64,000 nt of DNA from Bacteroidota bacterium (GCA_017860455.1 JAGDMF010000006.1:87028-151027); one strand, 5' to 3'. Counted from the first letter of the stretch, positions 314 through 63,093 are shown. Notes: generated by a model not told the origin, from the letters alone. Numbers and translations are program-made.

Positions 314-751
314 CTATTCTTTCATTAAATCTTCAAGAATCGTAATTGAGTCTGTAATACACTTTTCGCAGATGGTTTCAAATAGGTTATTTTCCTTTGC
401 GAACCGCTGCCCTTTTTCTGTTTTTAAATCACAGTTTAGGAGTCTTTTGCAGTTTATGGTTCCATGTAATGACACAAAACGATCACTAAATGACTGTATC
501 ATGGAATAGGTATGATCCTTTCTGATTTTATTATCTGCATATTTTTGACAATTGTAAATTCCAAGAACCATAAACGAGCCGGTGACCGCACCACAAGTTT
601 CCTGTAATCGTCCCATTCCGCCACCAAATCCAATCGAAACACTTTTTGCGATGCCGGAATCCAGATGTAAATCCTCTGAAAATGTTGTTAATACTGCCTG
701 AGCACAGTTTAAACCGGACTTAAATAAATCGAGAGCAATTTTTTCTTTCAT
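314..751 (-). CDS. C_GCAxxG_C_C family protein
   Basis: 145-aa ORF. NCAQAV, ETCGAVTG and the C-terminal CEKC cysteines fit the C_GCAxxG_C_C signature. Confidence 0.8.
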   Translation of the reverse strand: MKEKIALDLFKSGLNCAQAVLTTFSEDLHLDSGIAKSVSIGFGGGMGRLQETCGAVTGSFMVLGIYNCQKYADNKIRKDHTYSMIQSFSDRFVSLHGTINCKRLLNCDLKTEKGQRFAKENNLFETICEKCITDSITILEDLMKE

Positions 752-4171: not shown

Positions 4172-4256
4172 ATTTTCATTGGGTTACCCCTGTTTTTCGG
4201 ACTAGAATTAGTTTAATTTATGGTTGCAAATATACATTTTTTATTAATGTGCTAAT

Positions 4257-4325
4257 TAGGCGAAAGGGACAAGGGGAAAGGGGGAAGGAAGAAGTCGGCA
4301 GACGGCGGTCGGCAGACTTATTTAT
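4257..4325 (+). repeat. partial composite repeat (GGCGAAAGG-type words + GTCGGCAGAC words + ttattta)
   Basis: aggcgaaagggacaaggggaaagg...gtcggcagacggcggtcggcagacttattta matches the first modules of 105-303 and 13289-13617. Confidence 0.75.
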
Positions 4326-4336
4326 AACATAATCCA

Positions 4337-8995: not shown

Positions 8996-10912
8996 TCATA
9001 AATAAATTACATCCCATTCTTCACTTGCATCAAAATATGCCTTATGGTTTTCAGTGTATCTATCCTTGTGAACTGCTAAACAAATAAAATGTGTTGCCCT
9101 AGTCATTGCAACATAACCAAGTGGTAATCTTTTTTTAAAAGCATCATTAGTACGTTGTCTTGTTCGCTGTCTATCTGTGCTGATAATAAACTCTAAAATT
9201 TTGCTACCAATGTCGTAAACACGGTTGTAGGTTTCAAGATAAAGAGTCGCTGAATGTGTTTCGCCTTTTACTCCATGAATTGTATCAAAATGAATTTGCA
9301 CTTCCTGTCCATTCGTAGTAAAATGGTAAATTCTGTTTTCTACCTTTTCACTTGCTACTTCAACTTCAGGGTTTGTAAAAAATTGTTTTAGGTCGTCATT
9401 TACTTGTCCACCAAAAGTTGCAAGCAAATCTGAAACATAGGTTTCAATTTCCACCTTCAAAATTTCAGTTTTGGAAATTGTTGTAATCCATTTTGTAATG
9501 TTATCATTCATCTTTTTGGAGATACTTAAATCGTCCAACGAATTTAGATATTGATACAATGTAAAAGGCGTAAAGTAAAATCCTGTAACGGGATGCTTGA
9601 CTTTGCAAAGGCGTAAGCATTTGCAAAAAATACTTAGCAATGACTTTCTTACTTCATTAACATTTCTACTTTGTAAAGCCAACTGATTTGCGTTTTCAAG
9701 AAATGAAGTAATGTTTGAGAAATCTTTTTTGTTATAACCACGATTAAACTCATTCCAATAGGAGTTAATATTTAAACGGGAATCACTTAACCTTGCTCCA
9801 ACAGCTTTACATGGTTTTCCCTTATGGAGATTATGTTGGATAAGGAGTTCTCCAAACTTGTCTTTTACTTTTAGAATAGAGTTGTTGTCAAATAAAATGA
9901 TTGTCGGTTTCAAAGGTGTTGGGTTAATCCAACCAGTCATTACTTGAGGAGCAACGCAAATATCTTTTACTACTTGAACAATGTTCTCTGAAATTCTTGT
10001 TGTTTCGGTTAATTGCAAATCTGAATTTATTTTTGGTTGCCATTCATTTTGTTTATCAGATGATGAATAATTGAAAATTGACTGGTTGATGTCACCAATT
10101 TTTTGAACTATAGCAGAAGTGCCATCACACAAATAGCTTATGAGTTCCGATTGGTGAGTTTCCATGTCTTGCATTTCGTCAATAAAAATCAATGGAAATC
10201 TTTTAATGAATAGGTCTTTCAACTGTGGGTTTTCTCTGAGGTATTTGAAAGCAATTGAATATGCCTCATCATATTTAACGAATCCATCTTTTAATAATTT
10301 ATTTTTCGCATCTTCAATTTTTTTATAGTGAATTAGCATCTTGTCTTGGGAGATTCCATCAATTGTAAAAGGGCTTACTTCATTGATTGTCTTTGATACA
10401 CTAAAGTTGTGCATATTAAAAGATAAATAACCAATTTCGTCAACACCCTTTGCACTTAAAAACAAAGCCGTTCCGTAAAGGGACTTGAATTTATTTATCT
10501 CTTTACAGTAAGAATCTGTATCAGTAATATTTGGTGATTGTTTGAACTCATTTTTGTAAGCAGGAATAGTAAAGAATTTATCAACTACAGATTGAATTGT
10601 TCCGAAATGATTTGGATAATTGAAGTAGAAATTAGAAAAGGAATCCAGTTTGCTTTTAATTTCTGCAACTGCAACATTTGTGTGTGTGATTACACACACA
10701 CCTTGTTTAAATGATTTAGGAATTTTATTCGTTAAAATAATAAGTTTAGCAGCAAGAGTTGTTGTTTTGCCACTTCCAGGACAAGCTTGAATGTCGGTGC
10801 TATCCCAAAATCGGATAATCTTTTTTTGCCTTTCATTGAATTTAAAACCAAAATGATTTTCAACGAAAGCAATATCTTCATCGGTAATATTTAATTTTTT
10901 GAAATCAAACAT
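8996..10912 (-). CDS. gajB: UvrD/Rep-family helicase, GajB-like
   Basis: 638-aa ORF with Walker A CPGSGKTT, Walker B LIFIDEMQD, TIHGVKGETH and VAMTRA helicase motifs. It overlaps the upstream OLD-family gene by 8 nt. Confidence 0.85.
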   Translation of the reverse strand: MFDFKKLNITDEDIAFVENHFGFKFNERQKKIIRFWDSTDIQACPGSGKTTTLAAKLIILTNKIPKSFKQGVCVITHTNVAVAEIKSKLDSFSNFYFNYPNHFGTIQSVVDKFFTIPAYKNEFKQSPNITDTDSYCKEINKFKSLYGTALFLSAKGVDEIGYLSFNMHNFSVSKTINEVSPFTIDGISQDKMLIHYKKIEDAKNKLLKDGFVKYDEAYSIAFKYLRENPQLKDLFIKRFPLIFIDEMQDMETHQSELISYLCDGTSAIVQKIGDINQSIFNYSSSDKQNEWQPKINSDLQLTETTRISENIVQVVKDICVAPQVMTGWINPTPLKPTIILFDNNSILKVKDKFGELLIQHNLHKGKPCKAVGARLSDSRLNINSYWNEFNRGYNKKDFSNITSFLENANQLALQSRNVNEVRKSLLSIFCKCLRLCKVKHPVTGFYFTPFTLYQYLNSLDDLSISKKMNDNITKWITTISKTEILKVEIETYVSDLLATFGGQVNDDLKQFFTNPEVEVASEKVENRIYHFTTNGQEVQIHFDTIHGVKGETHSATLYLETYNRVYDIGSKILEFIISTDRQRTRQRTNDAFKKRLPLGYVAMTRATHFICLAVHKDRYTENHKAYFDASEEWDVIYL

Positions 10913-12791
10913 TGGTTACATACTTAATCGCATCTACTAAATATTTTAAGTGAGGGTCTTTCAAAATATCTTCAACATCAACTTTGGAGCTATTCAGAAT
11001 TCTTGAAAAAATTTGTGCGACCACTGCCTTAGATGCTTGCTTGCGTTCTAATGGAGCATAAATCTCTACCGCAATTTCAATATCGCTTATGCCTTCAGTT
11101 TTCCAGCGTTCTAAATCTTCCTCACATTTTTCTGTAATGCCTTTGCAAACTTCTTTGGTTGCATCTTCTTGAAGGTCATTAGTGGCTAATGCTAAGAGAA
11201 CTGATTTATGAATTAGATTGCGAAGACAACTTCTTGCAATCTCATATTCAAGTGTCCAAGTATTCGTAATGAATACCTGAACATCACCACCACTGTATTT
11301 GGCTTTTTTCTTTGAAACTATTTCAGCAATTTCTTGTGTAGAATATTCGTCTTCTGTCTTACGGTTATCACTAAGCAAACTAACTTGTTCAATCTCTCCT
11401 GTAAGACGCCTTTTGATTTCGTAGGTAAATTCCTTTCCTTCTTTTGGTGGAATATCTCTGTCTGTAATGCAGGAAACTTTTATTCCAATACCATTACCAT
11501 CTTTTCTCTGAAATATTTTTGCATATCGCAACAGTGCTGTGCTTCCAACATTTACAACTGAAACGCCATGTTTATGTAATGGAAATCCGATGTATTCAGC
11601 AAGTGTTGGAATAATTAGATTCTCTGCATCACCTTCAACTATTATCACACCGTTTGCGAAAAATAAGTTAGCCTTTGTGTTGTCCAAAAACCTTCTGAGA
11701 AATTCATAATCTCCATTTGCTAATTCGGTTTCGCCTTTTCTTAAAGAGTAGGCATTACTGTCTTTACAAAGAATTAAATTACTGAGGTCAACTTTTGATG
11801 CTAATGAATTACTGTGAGAAGAAATGATACTTTGAAACCCTAAACTTTTTGATTGCTTGTTAAGAAAGTCAATAAGATTTAATTGAGATTGAGGATGCAG
11901 ATGGGCTTCTATTTCTTCAATCAAAGAAAGTTTCAGCCCTACATAACCGCTATCCTTTTTCAGTAGCAACATTTCAGCAGCAATGAATAATAAGTTGTTT
12001 GACCCCAAACCTAAGTTTGATTCGTTTGTCTTTGACAAACCTTGCAATTCAAGTTTTTCAAGTATTCTGCCTAAATCGTTTTGAGCAATTCCAAACTTTG
12101 ATGAAAGTGGATTATTTAATAACGAAAACTCTTTCAGATAGCTTAAATTAATTGTGTCAGATACTTGCTTTCCTTCTTTGTTTTCAAAGTAGTCAGTTAC
12201 TTCAAGGTTTGCTTTATCCATTGTTTCTTCCAATGGATGTCTTGTGCTGTCTTGCTTTTGAAAAATTTCGTAAGCAGCAAGAATCTGAGAAAGCCGTGAA
12301 CCCTTTCTGGGTGCTAATTCAAACTCAGCATCTCTTAATGGTTTTAAGTAAGTTACCTTTAATTTGTTTTTTGCTTCACCGCTTATCATTCCACTTTCTT
12401 CGTCTTCACCAGCTTTCACATCATAATATACCTCTGAAAGAGAATTGCTTTTTTCCTTTCGTCTGCCAGTCAAAGTAAGTTTCAAATAATATTTTTCACC
12501 GCTTATGGATAACCATTCTAAGAATGCAGCCGCTTCATCAGGGTTAAGGTCATAAAATGTGCAAACTATTTTGAGTTCGGTCGCTCTTGTTGTTCCGTCA
12601 GTATAGAAATCATCTTTGTCAAGTTTTATCCAATCGTTGCTGTGAGTGCCAGTAACAAATTTTATAGCATCAATGATTGAAGATTTGCCAGAATCATTTT
12701 CTCCGACAAGAAGATTTAAACCGCTTTGAAATTCTAAATCGACTTTTTTAAATTGTCTAAAGTTTTCAATATGGATTTTCCCTAAATACAT
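10905..12791 (-). CDS. gajA: OLD-family ATP-dependent endonuclease (ABC-type ATPase + Toprim), GajA-like
   Basis: 628-aa ORF with Walker A GENDSGKS, Walker B/H-loop LSLIEEIEAHLHP, and Toprim motifs IIVEGDAENL and CITDRD. Confidence 0.85.
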   Translation of the reverse strand: MYLGKIHIENFRQFKKVDLEFQSGLNLLVGENDSGKSSIIDAIKFVTGTHSNDWIKLDKDDFYTDGTTRATELKIVCTFYDLNPDEAAAFLEWLSISGEKYYLKLTLTGRRKEKSNSLSEVYYDVKAGEDEESGMISGEAKNKLKVTYLKPLRDAEFELAPRKGSRLSQILAAYEIFQKQDSTRHPLEETMDKANLEVTDYFENKEGKQVSDTINLSYLKEFSLLNNPLSSKFGIAQNDLGRILEKLELQGLSKTNESNLGLGSNNLLFIAAEMLLLKKDSGYVGLKLSLIEEIEAHLHPQSQLNLIDFLNKQSKSLGFQSIISSHSNSLASKVDLSNLILCKDSNAYSLRKGETELANGDYEFLRRFLDNTKANLFFANGVIIVEGDAENLIIPTLAEYIGFPLHKHGVSVVNVGSTALLRYAKIFQRKDGNGIGIKVSCITDRDIPPKEGKEFTYEIKRRLTGEIEQVSLLSDNRKTEDEYSTQEIAEIVSKKKAKYSGGDVQVFITNTWTLEYEIARSCLRNLIHKSVLLALATNDLQEDATKEVCKGITEKCEEDLERWKTEGISDIEIAVEIYAPLERKQASKAVVAQIFSRILNSSKVDVEDILKDPHLKYLVDAIKYVTNV

Positions 12792-13288: not shown

Positions 13289-13617
13289 AGGGCGAAGGGC
13301 GAAAGGCAATAGAAAAAGTCGGCAGACGGCGGTCGGCGGTCGGCAGACTTATTTAGAACGTCGAACGTTTAACGTCGAACCGCTCCTGTCTCCCGTCTCC
13401 AGTCTCCCGTCACCAGTCTCCCGTCACCAGTCTCCCATCACCAGTCTCCAGTCTCTAGTCCCCGCATTAGGTCGTAGGCCAGATACCCCGCAAGTTGAGC
13501 TGCTTAGGGGATGACGGTTCGGGCAGAGCGACGGAGGAGCTACTGCCCGGCCGATCAGACCCTGGCAGCGAAACGAGGAGTATGGGCCGGAGACCGACGG
13601 CGAGCCTGCGAGCCGGA
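13289..13617 (+). repeat. composite modular repeat, copy 2 (word modules 13289-13463 + complete GC-rich core 13464-13617)
   Basis: Same module order as 105-303. The core is near-identical to 60387-60543, and the last 41 nt are identical. Confidence 0.85.
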
Positions 13618-14531
13618 GCACACATGTAAATGTAGTCGTGATGACGATAATTTAATACGGAATCTACCGTTGATGTGGCCGGAATACGGATCGGTCCTGG
13701 TGGTAAACCGGTGTACAAATAGGTGTTGTACGGTGAATCGGTCATCAAATGCTCTTCGGTTATTCTGGTAATTCTAAAATCTTGTAAGGCAAATTTTACC
13801 GTCGGATCTGCCTGTAACTTCATCCCCTTTATTAAGCGATTGATATACAATCCTGCGATCAGCCCTTTTTCTACCTCTTTGAAGTTTTCCTCTTCTACAA
13901 TAGAGGCTAAAGTCACCACTTGCGAGCGACTAAGTCCGATCTTTTGCGCCTGTTGATCTCTTTTCTCATTCCAGAATCGGTTGTATTGCTTGTACATCGA
14001 GCTGAAAAACTGTTCTGCAGTGATGTCGTAATATAATTCATACGTATTGGGAATAAAAATGGATATCGTTGTCTCGGGAGTAAGCCCAAAAGTGCTTAGA
14101 AATGTACGATTGTCTAATAAGTTTTCCAGTTCATTCCTTTCAAACAGAAACTTACCATCGAGTTTTTTGACCAGCTGCTCTTTGGTTCTGATGTTGTTAA
14201 AAGTGAAACGTACCGGAACATGTTGCCCTCTTCGTAACATTTTGATTAGGGAAAAGTTACTCTCATTTTCTTTAAAAGTGTATTTCCCCTTTTTGATATT
14301 TCCTTTAAAATCAAGTATTTGTGCAGCAATTCTGAAAGTGAAAAAACTTTTCACCTGTCCGCTTTCCTGAATATCCTGCATGACAGTTTCAAAAGTGGAA
14401 TCTTCGGTAATGATTAGTTTTCTAAAATTTCCTTCACCATTGGGAATGAAAAAAAGGAGGATAACAACAACAATGCCTAAAAATAAAAAGGCACCAATTC
14501 CGCCACCAATCTTTTTCTTACTTAATTTCAT
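13467..14531 (-). CDS. mltG: endolytic murein transglycosylase MltG (YceG-like), 3' end replaced by repeat-derived sequence
   Basis: N-terminal TM helix, ASIVEEE catalytic region and SPYNTYLYTGLPPGPI...DYIYMCA match MltG. The last ~44 codons (PARRLAVGLRPILLVSLPGSDRPGSSSS...) are read out of the GC-rich repeat. Confidence 0.8.
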   Translation of the reverse strand: MKLSKKKIGGGIGAFLFLGIVVVILLFFIPNGEGNFRKLIITEDSTFETVMQDIQESGQVKSFFTFRIAAQILDFKGNIKKGKYTFKENESNFSLIKMLRRGQHVPVRFTFNNIRTKEQLVKKLDGKFLFERNELENLLDNRTFLSTFGLTPETTISIFIPNTYELYYDITAEQFFSSMYKQYNRFWNEKRDQQAQKIGLSRSQVVTLASIVEEENFKEVEKGLIAGLYINRLIKGMKLQADPTVKFALQDFRITRITEEHLMTDSPYNTYLYTGLPPGPIRIPATSTVDSVLNYRHHDYIYMCAPARRLAVGLRPILLVSLPGSDRPGSSSSVALPEPSSPKQLNLRGIWPTT

Positions 14532-21310: not shown

Positions 21311-21343
21311 ATTATTTAAAAATTTAATTTAACAACCCATTCT

Positions 21344-21516
21344 GAGCACATCGAGCACATTGAGCACTCGAGCATTTGAGCATTCGAGCAATCGAGCAAT
21401 CTGAGCATTCGAGCATTCGAGCATTCGAGCATTCGAGCATTCGAGCATTCGAGCATTCGAGCAATCTGAGCATTCGAGCATTCGAGCATTCGAGCATTCG
21501 AGCAATCTGAGCATTA
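21344..21516. repeat. ~21-unit tandem octamer array (GAGCATTC with GAGCAATCT variants)
   Basis: Read directly. It starts right after the stop of 21521..24178 and ends ~30 nt before the start of 20837..21310. Confidence 0.95.
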
Positions 21517-29134: not shown

Positions 29135-30094
29135 ATGAAAAAAATTCTTGCAACTATTATTTTATCGTTTTTCTCACTCAGCATGTTTGCGCAATGGGGT
29201 TCAATCACGATCTCTTCTCAAAACTTTAACCAAAGATTTTGGGTGTTTGTTGATGATGTTTTACAAAACCAATACTCTGTTAATTCTATAAGAGTTCAAG
29301 GAATGAATATCCAACAACAATACCGGGTAAGAATTGAGATGGATAACTTTGATCAAAATATTTTAGGTCAAAATATTTCTATTAACGCACAACCTCGTTT
29401 TAATAATTATGAAATTAAATTTATAAATGGGGCTTATTTGTTTAAGTCAACCAATATGAATATTAATCCCATGTTAACAATGTCTATCATATATCCGAAT
29501 TATAGTTATTATAACGACTACTATTCCTATTTGAATCCTGGTTTTGGAAACTATGGGAATTATTGGGGAAATAGTGGAAAAAAATATAATAATCAAACCA
29601 TTCCTTCTGATTGTCATCCTAATAATGGAAATAATTATCCCGGAGGAAATAACTATGGCAACCAAGGAAATAATGGAAATTATGGCAACCCAGGTAATAA
29701 TGGAAATAACGGGAATTATGGGAATAATAATAACCAAGGAAACCATGGAAATAATGGAAACAATGGAAATCATGGGAATAACGGGAATAACGGACATCAA
29801 GGAAACAACACCCCTTGTATGTCTAATAACGAGTTTAATACCGCTTTAAATTCCATTAGAAGCGATAGTTTTGAATCCGGTAAATTGACCAAAGCTAAAC
29901 AAATTGTATCCAGAAACAGAATGTGTACTGCTCAAATTGTTCAGATTGTCAGATTATTCTCTTTTGAAAGTAATAAATTAGAGTTTGCTAAATATGCATA
30001 TCAGTTTTGTAACGACAAAAACAACTATTATCAGGTAACTGATGCTTTCTCGTTCCAATCTTCAAAAGACGAATTAATGAAATTTATAAATTAA
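29135..30094 (+). CDS. DUF4476 domain protein with Asn/Gly-rich low-complexity linker
   Basis: Signal peptide, a central GNNGN tract, and a C-terminal region (FESGKLTKAKQIV...FESNKLEFAKYAY) typical of DUF4476. Confidence 0.7.
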   Translation: MKKILATIILSFFSLSMFAQWGSITISSQNFNQRFWVFVDDVLQNQYSVNSIRVQGMNIQQQYRVRIEMDNFDQNILGQNISINAQPRFNNYEIKFINGAYLFKSTNMNINPMLTMSIIYPNYSYYNDYYSYLNPGFGNYGNYWGNSGKKYNNQTIPSDCHPNNGNNYPGGNNYGNQGNNGNYGNPGNNGNNGNYGNNNNQGNHGNNGNNGNHGNNGNNGHQGNNTPCMSNNEFNTALNSIRSDSFESGKLTKAKQIVSRNRMCTAQIVQIVRLFSFESNKLEFAKYAYQFCNDKNNYYQVTDAFSFQSSKDELMKFIN

Positions 30095-32186: not shown

Positions 32187-32299
32187 GTAACAGGTTAGAG
32201 GTTACAGGTAACAATTTTTTTGAAAAATACTAAATAAAGTAACAGGTTAGAGGTGACAGGTTACAGGTAACAGGTTAGAGGTGACAGGTTACAGGTAAC
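32187..32299. repeat. ACAGGTTAGAGGT/ACAGGTAAC word arrays (two blocks) with duplicated promoter-like module
   Basis: Blocks at 32187-32212 and 32239-32299. aaataaagtaacaggttagagg occurs twice (32180 and 32232). Confidence 0.85.
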
Positions 32300-32354
32300 A
32301 AATTATTTTGAAAAACACGAGATTGGTTGAAAAATGTGTCAAAAGAAAAAATTA

Positions 32355-32714: not shown

Positions 32715-32857
32715 AAGTTCGATTTTAGAATAAGTAGCATATTTTTCAATCGCAAATATATAATAAAAATTCTCTATTTTTATTTTTTCAAAAAAATTTT
32801 TATTTGTATTTTGTTATCATTCAAGAAATTTTATCATATATCCTTTATTTACAAAAT

Positions 32858-32930
32858 GTTACCTGTTACCTATTACCTGTTACCTGCTACTTGCTACTTG
32901 CTACCTGCTACCTATTACCTGTTACCTGTT
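32858..32930. repeat. GTTACCTGT/CTACCTGCT word array (inverse orientation of 32187-32299)
   Basis: Read directly. It is followed by actttatttag + TATTTTTG. Confidence 0.85.
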
Positions 32931-32941
32931 ACTTTATTTAG

Positions 32942-34668: not shown

Positions 34669-35670
34669 ATGGCATTCAATTTAAGAAACAGAAATTTCCT
34701 AAAATTGTTGGATTTTACTCCAGCGGAGATCAAGTATTTATTAAAACTTTCAGCAGATTTAAAAGCTGCTAAATATGCAGGTACAGAACAACCTACATTA
34801 ACAGGTAAAAACATTGTACTTCTTTTCGAAAAAGATTCAACACGTACTCGTTGCGCATTTGAAGTAGCTGCTTTAGATCAAGGTGCACATGTAACTTATT
34901 TAGGACCAGCTGGTTCTCAAATGGGAAAAAAAGAATCCATGAAAGACACTGCCCGTGTTTTAGGTAGAATGTATGATGGTATTGAGTATCGCGGATATGC
35001 TCAGGAGATTGTGGAAACTTTAGGTGCTTATGCCGGTGTTCCTGTTTGGAACGGATTAACCACTGAATTTCACCCAACTCAAATTTTAGCTGACTTTTTA
35101 ACCATGATGGAACACAGTGATAAACCTTTACACCAAGTTTCATTTGCTTATTTAGGAGATGCAAAAAACAACATGGGTAATAGTTTGATGGTTGGTGCTG
35201 CAAAAATGGGAATGGATTTCCGCGCAGTAGCTCCAAAACAATGCTGGCCGGAAGAAGCATTAGTAGCCAAATGTAGAGAGATCGCTAAAGAAACCGGTGC
35301 AACCATCACTTTAACTGAAAATGTTTCTGAGGGTGTTAAAGGTGTAGATTTCTTATACACAGATGTTTGGGTATCTATGGGAGAACCTGCAGCAGTTTGG
35401 GAAGAGAGAATCAAATTGTTAACTCCTTACCAAATCAATATGAATGTTGTGAAAGCAACTCAAAATCCAAATGTTAAATTTATGCATTGCTTACCAGCAT
35501 TCCACAACTTAGAAACTGAAGTGGGTAGAGATATCTATGCTAAATTTGGTTTAGAATCTATGGAAGTTTCTGAAGATGTATTCGAATCACCAATGTCAAT
35601 CGTTTTTGACGAAGCTGAAAACCGTTTACATACGATTAAAGCGGTTATGGTAGCGACGTTAGGGAAATAG
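34669..35670 (+). CDS. argF: ornithine carbamoyltransferase
   Basis: [13 protein letters not shown] and HCLPA motifs. Confidence 0.95.
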
Positions 35671-35745
35671 GCGAAGGGCGAAAGGCAAAGGGCGAAAGGC
35701 AAAGGGCGAAAGGCGAAGGGCGAAAGGTGAAAGGCGAATGGCAAA
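35669..35745 (+). repeat. GGCGAAAGG-type word array starting in the argF stop codon
   Basis: taGGCGAAGGGCGAAAGGCAAAGGGCGAAAGG... read directly. Confidence 0.9.
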
Positions 35746-40942: not shown

Positions 40943-40987
40943 GTTTGTAGCGTGAAGATATGCTAAGAAAAACGAAGCCACTTAAAG

Positions 40988-41078
40988 CACATCAGCACAT
41001 TAGCACAATAGCTTTTTAGCACATTAGCACATCAACACATTAGCACATTAGCTTATTAGCACATTAGCACATTAGCTC
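40988..41078 (+). repeat. ATTAGCAC word array directly upstream of a -7 box
   Basis: The units are the reverse complement of the GTGCTAAT array at 62950-63037. Confidence 0.9.
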
Positions 41079-41088
41079 ATTTTTTTTA

Positions 41089-58572: not shown

Positions 58573-59610
58573 TTACAATGACCCCATTATTTTCCAATAT
58601 CCGGTTTTATCGCTTCCTATTCTTTCAATTAAGCCGCGATCTTTCAATAGTTTAATTCTTCTTTTGGCAGTACTTAAACTAATATTTAAAAAGGTGCTGA
58701 TTTCAATTGCTGTTATTTGATTGTTTTCTTTTATCAAAGAAAATAGAGGTTCATTTACAGTGTCATTTTTAAGTTTTACAGTGTCATTTTGATAATGATT
58801 AAAATGAATATGTAATTCTCTATTTTTAAGAATATTATTTTCATGAAGGAGTAAGTTCCTCAAAAAACGGATAAGATAGATCTCGTTTTTATAAATATTT
58901 TTTGATAAATCTTCATAATTTGCTCTTACTAATGCATTTCGAAAAAACCATGAATAGGAAGCAAACATTTCATTATTAACATCTTTATAACCCAGTTTTC
59001 TTAAATATTTGATTAGGAAAATTGCAGTTGTTCTGGTATTTCCTTCACCAAAAACATGAATTTGCCATAGATAAGAGATAAAATGTGCTAAATGTTCAAT
59101 AATTTCAAATTGATTTAGACCTCTATAGTTAAATTGTTTCTCTTGTTTAAAGTCGAATTCTAAAGTAGCATTAAGACTTTCAGCTGTAGCATACAAAACG
59201 GTTTCCCCATTTAAAACCCATTCTTGTTTTGTAATATTATAATCTCTGATTTTTCCTGCATGGTTATAAATATCCTTAAACAATCTTCTGTGAATCGTCA
59301 GATATTCCGATGGTGAAAAAGTAAATGTTTTTTCACTCAAAATTTCAGTAATCCGAGCAGATACTTTATCAGCTTCTTCTGTTCTGTTTTCATTATCAGT
59401 TGATGGGTGTTGCTTATAGTAACTTTCTATTCTTAGTTTTACTTCCTGAATTGAAATTTCTCCTTCAATATTTTGTTTGGCAGTTTCAATGAGATAACCA
59501 GAGGGTTTTAAACCATCTATTTGTTGTAATCCAATTGCGGTTTTCCAGTCTTTAGCTTTTTCCGCTTTGCTTGGTTCCCCTTGTCTCAAATATTCATCAA
59601 AGTTATTCAT
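58573..59610 (-). CDS. Fic/DOC family protein with VbhA-like N-terminal segment and C-terminal wHTH
   Basis: Fic motif variant HVFGEGNTRTTA, N-terminal WKTAIGLQQIDGLKPSGYL...NIEGEISI, and C-terminal LSTAKRRIKLLKDRGLIERIGSDKTGYWKI. Confidence 0.85.
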   Translation of the reverse strand: MNNFDEYLRQGEPSKAEKAKDWKTAIGLQQIDGLKPSGYLIETAKQNIEGEISIQEVKLRIESYYKQHPSTDNENRTEEADKVSARITEILSEKTFTFSPSEYLTIHRRLFKDIYNHAGKIRDYNITKQEWVLNGETVLYATAESLNATLEFDFKQEKQFNYRGLNQFEIIEHLAHFISYLWQIHVFGEGNTRTTAIFLIKYLRKLGYKDVNNEMFASYSWFFRNALVRANYEDLSKNIYKNEIYLIRFLRNLLLHENNILKNRELHIHFNHYQNDTVKLKNDTVNEPLFSLIKENNQITAIEISTFLNISLSTAKRRIKLLKDRGLIERIGSDKTGYWKIMGSL

Positions 59611-60386: not shown

Positions 60387-60543
60387 GCATTAGGGCGAAG
60401 GCCAGGTACCCCGCAAGTTTTTTTGCTTAGGGGATGTTGGATCGGGCAGAGCGACCTTGGGAGCTACTGCCCGGCCGATCAGACCCTTAGCATAAAAAAC
60501 GCGGAGTATGGGCCGGAGACCGACGGCGAGCCTGCGAGCCGGA
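60387..60543 (+). repeat. GC-rich structured core repeat, copy 3
   Basis: Aligns end to end with 13464-13617. Differences are confined to predicted hairpin loops. Confidence 0.85.
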
Positions 60544-60550
60544 ATGCCCA

Positions 60551-60725
60551 AATTAATAAGCTAATGAGCTAATGAGATAATAAGCTAATTATTAATGAAT
60601 AATGAATAATGAAACAAGTGTAGAAAGATTGCAGGATTTTAAAGCGATTCAACCTTTCAACTTTCAACAGCGCAGCGTTCAACTTTCAACTTTAAACAGC
60701 GAAGCGTTCAACCTTTAAACAGCTA
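60551..60725. repeat. word arrays (TAAGCTAA/TGAGCTAA, AATGAATA, TTCAACTT with CAGCGNAGCG spacers)
   Basis: Read directly between the GC-rich core and the DPP-IV stop codon. Confidence 0.8.
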
Positions 60726-60729
60726 ATAG

Positions 60730-62940: not shown

Positions 62941-62949
62941 CGAAATAAT

Positions 62950-63093
62950 GTGCTAATGTGCTAATGTGCTGATGTGCTAATGTGCTAATGTGCTAATGTG
63001 CTGATGTGCTAATGTGCTAATGTGCTGATGTGCTAATTAGGCGAAGGGCGAAAGAAAATTAGCAAATTAGCAAATTTGTAATTTAGCAAATTA
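62950..63093 (+). repeat. GTGCTAAT x11 array, then GGCGAAGG words, then TTAGCAAA words
   Basis: 62950-63037 is exactly 11 octamers (GTGCTAAT/GTGCTGAT). Further words follow at 63040-63054 and 63059-63093. Confidence 0.95.

Follow-up and report, generated by a model that had tools for sequence, protein, structure and literature searches.

Dispersed repeats derived from the ends of insertion sequences (IS) are common, and bacterial MITEs of this origin include Correia/NEMIS of Neisseria, RUP of Streptococcus pneumoniae and Nezha of cyanobacteria. The repeat described here resembles them in being 160-210 bp long, non-coding, multi-copy and intergenic, in its relationship to the ends of an element that encodes a transposase in the same genomes, in folding as a long hairpin and in breaking metagenome assemblies. 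It differs from them in that a solo copy corresponds to one end of the parent rather than to two ends joined, in its short terminal inverted repeat of ~5-8 bp (GCATT..GGC), in that no target-site duplication was found, and in a GC content of 61-68% within a 33% GC genome, covariation of an RNA-like kind and a variable-length hairpin. The parent element shares with the IS1595 family (ISfinder; NF033547, PF12762) an N-terminal zinc ribbon, whole-profile alignment, a single open reading frame (ORF) and inverted ends. It departs from that family in scoring under the curated cutoffs (58 vs. 75 bits), in a 50-aa N-terminal extension and in showing no 8-bp duplication of the kind that IS1595 elements normally make at their targets, while its structured, GC-rich terminal modules of 160-210 bp set it apart from more distant IS1595 relatives, which lack them. 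ERIC/IRU and the Rickettsia palindromic elements (RPE) are likewise dispersed multi-copy imperfect palindromes, of ~100-150 bp, and structure-preserving substitutions have been reported for ERIC and RPE, for neither of which we know of a parent transposase. The module has zero sequence similarity to these elements and, whereas RPEs insert in frame into genes, its one genic overlap appears to be a deletion artefact.

Structured RNAs at transposon ends form another group of comparators, including the omega/reRNA of TnpB, the bridge RNA of IS110, RNA-OUT of IS10 and the 5′-UTR structure of IS200. The module has in common with these a conserved structure at an IS end on the outward strand, and the downstream-end module occupies the same place relative to the protein gene as omega RNA does, a resemblance of position only. 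However, its partner is a DDE transposase, a class for which no RNA partner is known to us; none of the TnpB, IscB or IS110-type genes was seen in module loci, none of its variable segments was found to match the flanks in the manner of a guide and, unlike IS10 RNA-OUT, the module does not overlap the transposase start. A literature search on IS1595 in combination with MITEs, secondary structure or non-coding RNA returned nothing relevant. What distinguishes the module from common IS-end repeats is its compensatory helices, conserved unpaired junctions, variable-length hairpin and steady strand preference; to our knowledge, no requirement for RNA or for single-strand structure has been described in DDE transposons, and should the fold prove to act in transposition or in its control, the module would be a type of cis element or RNA encoded by transposons that is new and missing from Rfam.

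The repeat was first noticed in a 64,000-nt stretch of DNA from a Bacteroidota bacterium (GCA_017860455.1 JAGDMF010000006.1:87028-151027), referred to here as the window. It probably represents the terminal module of an insertion sequence that belongs to the IS1595 family and resides in uncultured Bacteroidales, and it is present mostly as solo, MITE-like copies. Three copies lie in the window, at 13464-13617, at 60387-60549 and, as a 44-nt fragment, at 259-302, and exactly these three were recovered by nhmmer with a profile built from 71 copies (E 5e-47, 4e-43, and 1e-7, respectively). An earlier note on this sequence had reported a GC-rich structured repeat in an AT-rich genome, and its coordinates and quoted sequences were reproduced with one exception, the end of the second copy, which it placed at 60543 and which lies at 60549, at ...GGAATGCCC. 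The GC content of the two long copies is 0.65 and 0.61 (61-65%), against 33.3% for the window; their last 41 nt are identical, as had been stated, and correspond to repeat pair D19. Relative to shuffled sequences, the plus strands of the long copies fold with z-scores of -5.4 and -4.8 and the minus strands with -4.0 and -3.4. The repeat-finder pairs (D14, D15, and D19), the profile matches, the GC content and the fold scores together establish that the repeat is genuine rather than a product of chance.

The most complete window copy, 60387-60549 on the plus strand, is a full-length solo module of 163 nt (GCATTAGGGCG...GAGCCGGAATGCCC) of the short-P2 class, 88% identical to the family consensus. 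It begins 25 nt past the stop of a plus-strand ORF of 114 aa and ends 181 nt from the stop of a minus-strand DPP-IV gene. Its 5′ end (60387-60391) is the P0 strand GCATT, which pairs with AATGC at 60543-60547 (five pairs, 99.7% paired); P1, a long irregular hairpin bounded by GGCC...GGCC, spans 60400-60514, with its apical part AGAGCGAC..GGAGCT starting at 60448; the junction GGAGACCGAC occupies 60515-60524; and the variable hairpin P2, here in its short form GGCGAGCCTGCGAGCCGG, lies at 60525-60542, a place taken in other copies by forms of ~34 or ~65 nt (all on the plus strand). The 3′ flank at 60550-60729 consists of 8-nt and 7-nt tandem arrays (TAATAAGC, TAATGAA, TTCAACT), as it does at most family members. 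The plus-strand solo module at 13464-13617 (154 nt) lacks the last 6-9 nt (AATGCCC) and is read through by a truncated mltG ORF on the opposite strand, and the plus-strand fragment at 259-302 comprises the 5′ 44 nt of the module at 82-84% identity and abuts the stop of a C_GCAxxG_C_C gene (314-751, minus strand). The window copies are intergenic, non-coding solos with sharp bounds, two of the three damaged by deletion, and zero transposase genes are present in the 64 kb; they probably have no host role beyond providing a stable structure between convergent genes. More generally, this family accounts for local peaks in GC content, for breaks in assemblies and for small deletions, such as the one that truncates mltG here, in these AT-rich Bacteroidales genomes.

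Further copies were sought in several ways. Scanning one genome per species for an exact 20-mer gave 57 loci, 48 of which were chance matches in GC-rich actinobacteria; the nine true copies came from two AT-rich assemblies, the closed 3.47-Mb metagenome chromosome OW818690.1 and a Bacteroidales MAG. A gapped pattern scan of metagenome contigs contributed 80 further loci, and zero copies were found in the viral contigs, plasmids and phages scanned. BLAST across all loci yielded 107 matches representing 71 distinct full-length copies, many of them at contig ends, as expected of repeats. Because copies were gathered with words taken from the module itself, conservation at those positions is inflated or forced, and the covariation falls outside them; for the junction GGAGACCGAC, invariance is forced by the collection patterns except at its last two bases (GAC at 60522-60524 in the window copy), which are the sole free observation. 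The earlier note could not match the element to tRNA, tmRNA, RNase P, SRP RNA or a hammerhead core. Rfam 15 at gathering thresholds (the whole window and 16 loci) contained no family that matches the module, and at E<=10 the locus returned noise only (MIR391, E 4.2; sR39, E 9.9).

The same architecture emerges from folds of single sequences and from RNAalifold runs on 10 and on 71 copies, in the order P0 stem (GCAUU/AAUGC), P1 long hairpin, junction, P2 hairpin and end GGAAUGCCC. In the 71-copy alignment, standard pairs occupy 97.3% of cells, compared with 27-42% when the partners are slid, and stem-preserving substitutions are abundant, with 26 of the 54 pairs changed on both sides (236 cells); the observed pairing values were reached by none of 500 shuffles. 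P1 helices 3 and 4 contribute 40 pairs, 22 of them changed on both sides, and P0 covaries at position 3/212, which is A-U in 62 copies (GCAUU/AAUGC) and G-C in seven (GCGUU/AACGC). Two divergent copies at ~60-70% identity (L089:7844 and L091:1286) keep the helices through compensatory changes. P2 takes three forms, of ~18, 34, and 65 nt between fixed flanks, giving elements of 160, 177 or 208 nt. That the element is structured, as the earlier note held, is strongly supported, though with another fold than the three local hairpins it proposed. Its second stem (GGGCAGAGC/GCUaCUGCCC) survives as the apical part of P1; its first and third show zero compensatory pairs, all variants break them, and the pair counts rule them out. 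Nor is variation confined to loops, since the segments that differ between copies are the two covarying sides of one long helix, P1. A coding reading was ruled out by indels of 17 and 48 nt and by substitutions that are compensatory rather than codon-like, and an apparent base-pairing match of the core end CTCCGTCG to the apical loop CGACGGAG was dropped when it did not track the loop variants.

The two strands of the module are not equivalent. Minimum free energy is lower on the plus strand in all 70 copies compared, by 9-13 kcal/mol on average, and the consensus structure has an energy of -63.1 kcal/mol on the plus strand vs. -48.9 kcal/mol on the minus strand, again lower on the plus strand in 70 of 70. 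The energy comparison was preferred for choosing the strand because counts of G-U vs. A-C in the consensus helices (69 vs. 29) are dominated by one column each way and become 19 vs. 16 without one dominant column per side. The P2 interior is rich in G+U on the plus strand (G 931 vs. C 422). This strand is the one that reads outward from the element interior, in the transposase sense at the downstream end. As it folds better in all copies, a single-strand fold, most likely of RNA, is inferred for that strand, and the modelled energies suggest that the outward-reading strand acts as RNA or as a single strand.

The parent element was recognized from at least seven loci (L015, L154, L152/L153, L089, L069, L067, and a degraded example in L044) in which a gene for a 341-aa transposase lies between two inverted modules, their ...GGAATGCCC ends facing outward. 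The modules, 160-210 bp each, form the outermost tips of a transposase-bearing element of ~1.9-2.0 kb; whole units align end to end at ~68% nucleotide identity with homology ending at GGAATGCCC, which is also where the sequence common to recent copies ends. The repeat does match an IS end, an outcome that the earlier note had named as contrary to its account, and of the origins it had suggested the mobile element has held up while RPE-like in-frame insertion and a 3′-UTR rule have not. The 341-aa protein scores 43.6-47.3 bits against NF050000 (IS1/IS1595 zinc domain, cutoff 28) and matches NF033547 (IS1595 transposase) at 1e-15 over positions 6-210 of 215, at the sub-cutoff score given above; in Pfam it shows a weak zinc ribbon alone and no DDE_Tnp_IS1595 match, and PF12762 is carried by homologs at 30-35% identity. 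It was assigned to a divergent IS1595-family clade on the basis of the zinc domain above its cutoff, the full-profile match below cutoff and the presence of PF12762 in homologs. One complete two-module element (L154, 1065-3075, OW818690.1) lies directly downstream of rpsS (ribosomal protein S19); rplV is normally the next gene in the S10 operon.

A sister clade with a 335-aa transposase, 45% identical to the 341-aa protein, has a module, itself diverged, at just one of its ends, the one downstream of the transposase gene. Its unit of 1,757 nt is 87.6% identical between two unrelated genomic contexts and has a 20-nt inverted repeat at one end and, at the opposite end, the matching repeat, 52 nt, a small hairpin and the diverged module ...GCCGGCACGCCC. 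The closing stem of this module has changed compensatorily to GCGUG/CACGC. Its fold is not better than that of shuffled sequences (z -0.6), and the homology claim is therefore restricted to the 3′ part of the module. IS1595 relatives at 33-35% identity carry no module, for which reason it is regarded as a clade-specific part of these elements.

The core ends (CCGACGGAGC...) carry 57-nt inner inverted repeats, to which the outer tip GGGCATTCC is not similar. All module pairs less than 3.5 kb apart are oriented with tips outward, and some of them enclose ordinary genes. One-module elements also occur (L155, L117, and L148/L149), L155 beginning exactly at the inner core end, and the left module of L117 is reduced to 21 nt. 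L087 (~470-495) and L103 (5′ flank of the module at 901) contain a 25-nt mini-module GGGCATTCCGGCTTCGCCCTAATGC, i.e., GGGCATTCCGGCTTC(G/T)CCCTAATGC, which consists of the two module boundaries joined, apparently through deletion between the short repeats GCGAAG and GCGAG; the L087 example terminates an element with a transposase gene and shows that loss of the folded interior can occur at such a position. The one-end modules and the dissimilarity of tip and core ends imply that the transposase may act on the core ends, with the module as passenger or target. Neither at module tips nor at core ends was a target-site duplication seen.

Solo copies predominate, a transposase gene standing beside the module in only 11 of 89 loci. 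Their boundaries are sharp, at G1 of GCATT and at GCCC, and the inverted match between them is limited to GCATT/AATGC plus ..GGC (~5-8 bp), a stem that covaries. Direct repeats of 3-8 nt in the flanks, allowing any boundary offset, were in no excess over permuted flanks among 69 distinct copies. The solos would have arisen from the IS, because each has the element tip at one boundary and the similar GCATTNNGGC inverted at the other, and they may be moved in trans by its transposase. A simple MITE model does not predict that solos have at least four different conserved 5′ extensions: the element interior (class a), a small AAAACCG..CGGTTTT hairpin (class b), an unrelated conserved element of ~130 nt (class c), and GTCGAACGTTTAACGTCGAAC with heptamer arrays (class d). 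Class d accounts for window copies 1 and 3 and thereby for window repeat D12, in which 13297-13419 is 80% identical to 136-258. The extension of the longer of these copies (13297-13463, plus strand; repeats D9, D10, and D12) comprises GGCAGAC-type heptamers, TTATTTAGAAC, GTCGAACGTTTAACGTCGAAC and GTCTCCC-type heptamers, and that of the fragmentary copy lies at 136-258 on the plus strand. The class d motif was also found 5′ of modules in L005, L057, L061, L082, L102, L132, and L137, and one occurrence of the class d composite repeat in the window, at 4254-4328, has no module. Upstream of the class c element, L094 (2350-2570; also L079, L034/L114, and L116) has ~10 tandem 21-nt units (TGGCAGTTATCAAATAAGTGA) that are iteron-like and have no Rfam match. 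TTCCACACTTTCCCGGAATAAG, found near several solos (5′ flanks in L137, L127, L120, and L062), matches the inverted ends of a module-less IS1595-type element (L164); these intergenic regions thus collect remnants of more than one insertion-sequence family.

Among ~100 copies examined in context, all are intergenic except for the mltG overlap in the window. Relative to the module, the gene on its 3′ side lies on the opposite strand 51 times and on the same strand 31 times, in a sample that includes repeated loci, and the gene on its 5′ side divides 36 vs. 34 by strand. The rule that copies always lie 3′ of minus-strand genes, which had been drawn from the window, holds for its three copies, but across the family it is no more than a weak tendency. 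The module occupies the same site in two strains 91-96% identical to the window (L083 and L125), whereas DPP-IV relatives at 80-86% protein identity have no module downstream; one of these retains the convergent 114-aa gene, and the site differs by an extra gene, so that it does not make a clean empty site. On these comparisons, the module appears to be dispersed rather than syntenic. The mltG (YceG family) ORF at 13467-14531 on the minus strand lacks the 33 codons at its end and instead continues for 49 codons into the module, with the Pfam YceG match ending at 255 of 275. L125, which is 95.6% identical, has an intact 336-aa mltG, ~150 nt of tandem arrays and a full module, in comparison with which the window has lost ~255 nt (the 33 codons, the spacer and the module tip) at the junction CATGTGTGC|TCCGGCTCGC. 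Judged from this alignment, the overlap could be a deletion that is either real in the strain or an assembly error; RPE-like in-frame insertion into mltG, bypass and an intron were ruled out by the intact L125 ortholog, which shows the 255-nt deletion.

The explanation that we favor overall, and hold to be quite probable, is that the repeat is an IS-end module, that the solos derive from the IS and that the module is kept for its single-strand fold. The module would be retained since it must fold as a single strand, with the closing stem joining both boundaries and followed by P1, the junction and P2. The folded species would most likely be RNA, produced by transcription running out through the element end, because the best-folding strand is the one read outward, and such an RNA might act in cis on transposase expression, stabilize the transposase transcript or be bound by the transposase. 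A bolder version, which we regard as unlikely, is that a DDE IS clade has acquired, and depends on, a structured tip RNA of ~160-210 nt that is read outward and that the transposase binds, with a part in transposition or in its regulation, serving as scaffold, end-marker or flank-reading RNA. Were it true, functional RNAs of transposons, so far tied to TnpB/IscB and IS110, would extend to a DDE transposase, and the abundant solos would be stand-alone RNA genes or decoys. That the fold instead matters in DNA only, as a hairpin or cruciform at the element end recognized by the transposase with no RNA involved, strikes us as unlikely. Watson-Crick covariation fits DNA as well as RNA, the G-U and A-C counts are nearly balanced once the two dominant columns are dropped, no conserved promoter was seen upstream of modules, and the AAAACCG..CGGTTTT hairpin directly 5′ of the module in class b and in the 335-aa clade could stop transcription from inside. 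A cruciform, however, needs both strands, while the plus strand is favored in 70 of 70 copies by 9-14 kcal/mol, and the strand asymmetry is due to juxtaposed G-A and U-G and to the G+U-rich P2 interior, as is typical of RNA; moreover, we are aware of no DDE transposase that needs pre-folded single-stranded ends.

The other alternatives detach the module from the parent or assign it elsewhere. If it were an independent repeat of REP/BIME or ERIC type beside which the IS1595-type element preferentially inserts, the observations that core ends bearing inverted repeats of their own lie 13-52 nt inside the modules, that L155 starts at the core end with no module and that solos far outnumber transposase-linked copies would be readily accommodated, and REP-targeting insertion sequences are known. 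We nevertheless judge this distinctly unlikely: the junction at which the core end meets the module is conserved too, in inverted orientation at the two ends of the element (including class a), module and transposase diverge together, the 335-aa clade having a variant of its own with 94% conservation across two contexts, the core ends have no flanking duplication, and the empty target that is required, a head-to-head pair with a short spacer, was not seen, the closest pair being 244 nt apart. The truncated and collapsed remnants kept in L117 and L087 further indicate that modules have been lost rather than never having been there. A host-beneficial structured RNA, stabilizing 3′ ends or forming a transcription barrier between convergent genes, would suit the intergenic location, the convergent 3′-side gene in 51 of 82 cases, the retention of the module at one site in strains 91-96% identical and the position of all three window copies beside gene 3′ ends. 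It is very unlikely in view of an orientation bias that is weak, drawn from a sample with repeated loci and absent on the 5′ side, the lack of the module at the orthologous site in 80-86% relatives, its tie to a transposase clade and the frequency of truncated and collapsed copies; in addition, no U-run follows the structure on either strand, the plus strand being followed by A-runs. An intrinsic terminator was rejected for related reasons: the plus strand continues into A-runs and AT-rich arrays, and on the minus strand a T-run precedes the structure with no U-run after the hairpin. Membership of a known class is highly improbable, even though an imperfect palindrome near gene 3′ ends recalls an integron attC, a transposon end downstream of a transposase gene recalls the omega RNA of TnpB/IscB, and two hairpins with internal loops recall the IS110 bridge RNA; self-cleaving ribozymes and tRNA-like elements belong to the same set. 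No Rfam match appeared at gathering thresholds or at E<=10, the hammerhead core is absent, and the partner is a DDE IS1595-type transposase rather than TnpB, IscB, an IS110 recombinase or an integrase. The GTTRRRY-like sequence is also at the wrong end for attC. Read in the same direction as its cassette gene, an attC site has RYYYAAC at the 5′ end and GTTRRRY at the 3′ end, and the module, with (A/G)TTAGG(G/T) at its 5′ end on the plus strand and the complement at the 3′ end on the minus strand, has the reverse orientation.

Several further features of these loci were recorded. About 20 intergenic sites in the window carry tandem arrays of 7-nt or 8-nt units (GAGCATTC, TAATGTGC, GGCGAAA/GGCAAAG, GTAACAG, and AGCACATT), often as inverted pairs, examples being 21338-21515, 32239-32300, 32857-32932, 35669-35745, 40986-41081, and 62946-63037. 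The arrays beside the mltG module are wholly different in the window and in L125 despite flanks that are 95% identical. Just beyond that module locus, 10905-12791 (minus strand) encodes a 628-aa OLD-family protein (AAA_15 ATPase and TOPRIM), presumably a typical anti-phage defense gene. On the side matching the OLD gene, L125 instead carries another gene, of 179 aa, together with a DUF805 RNA motif (2130-2197); the window has no DUF805 match. Near the second module, 58573-59610 (minus strand) encodes a Fic/DOC-domain protein with a C-terminal winged-helix domain, and at 29630-29826 a repeat with 9-nt and 27-nt periodicity (GGAAATAAT...) falls within a reading frame, where it specifies a low-complexity stretch rich in Asn and Gly.
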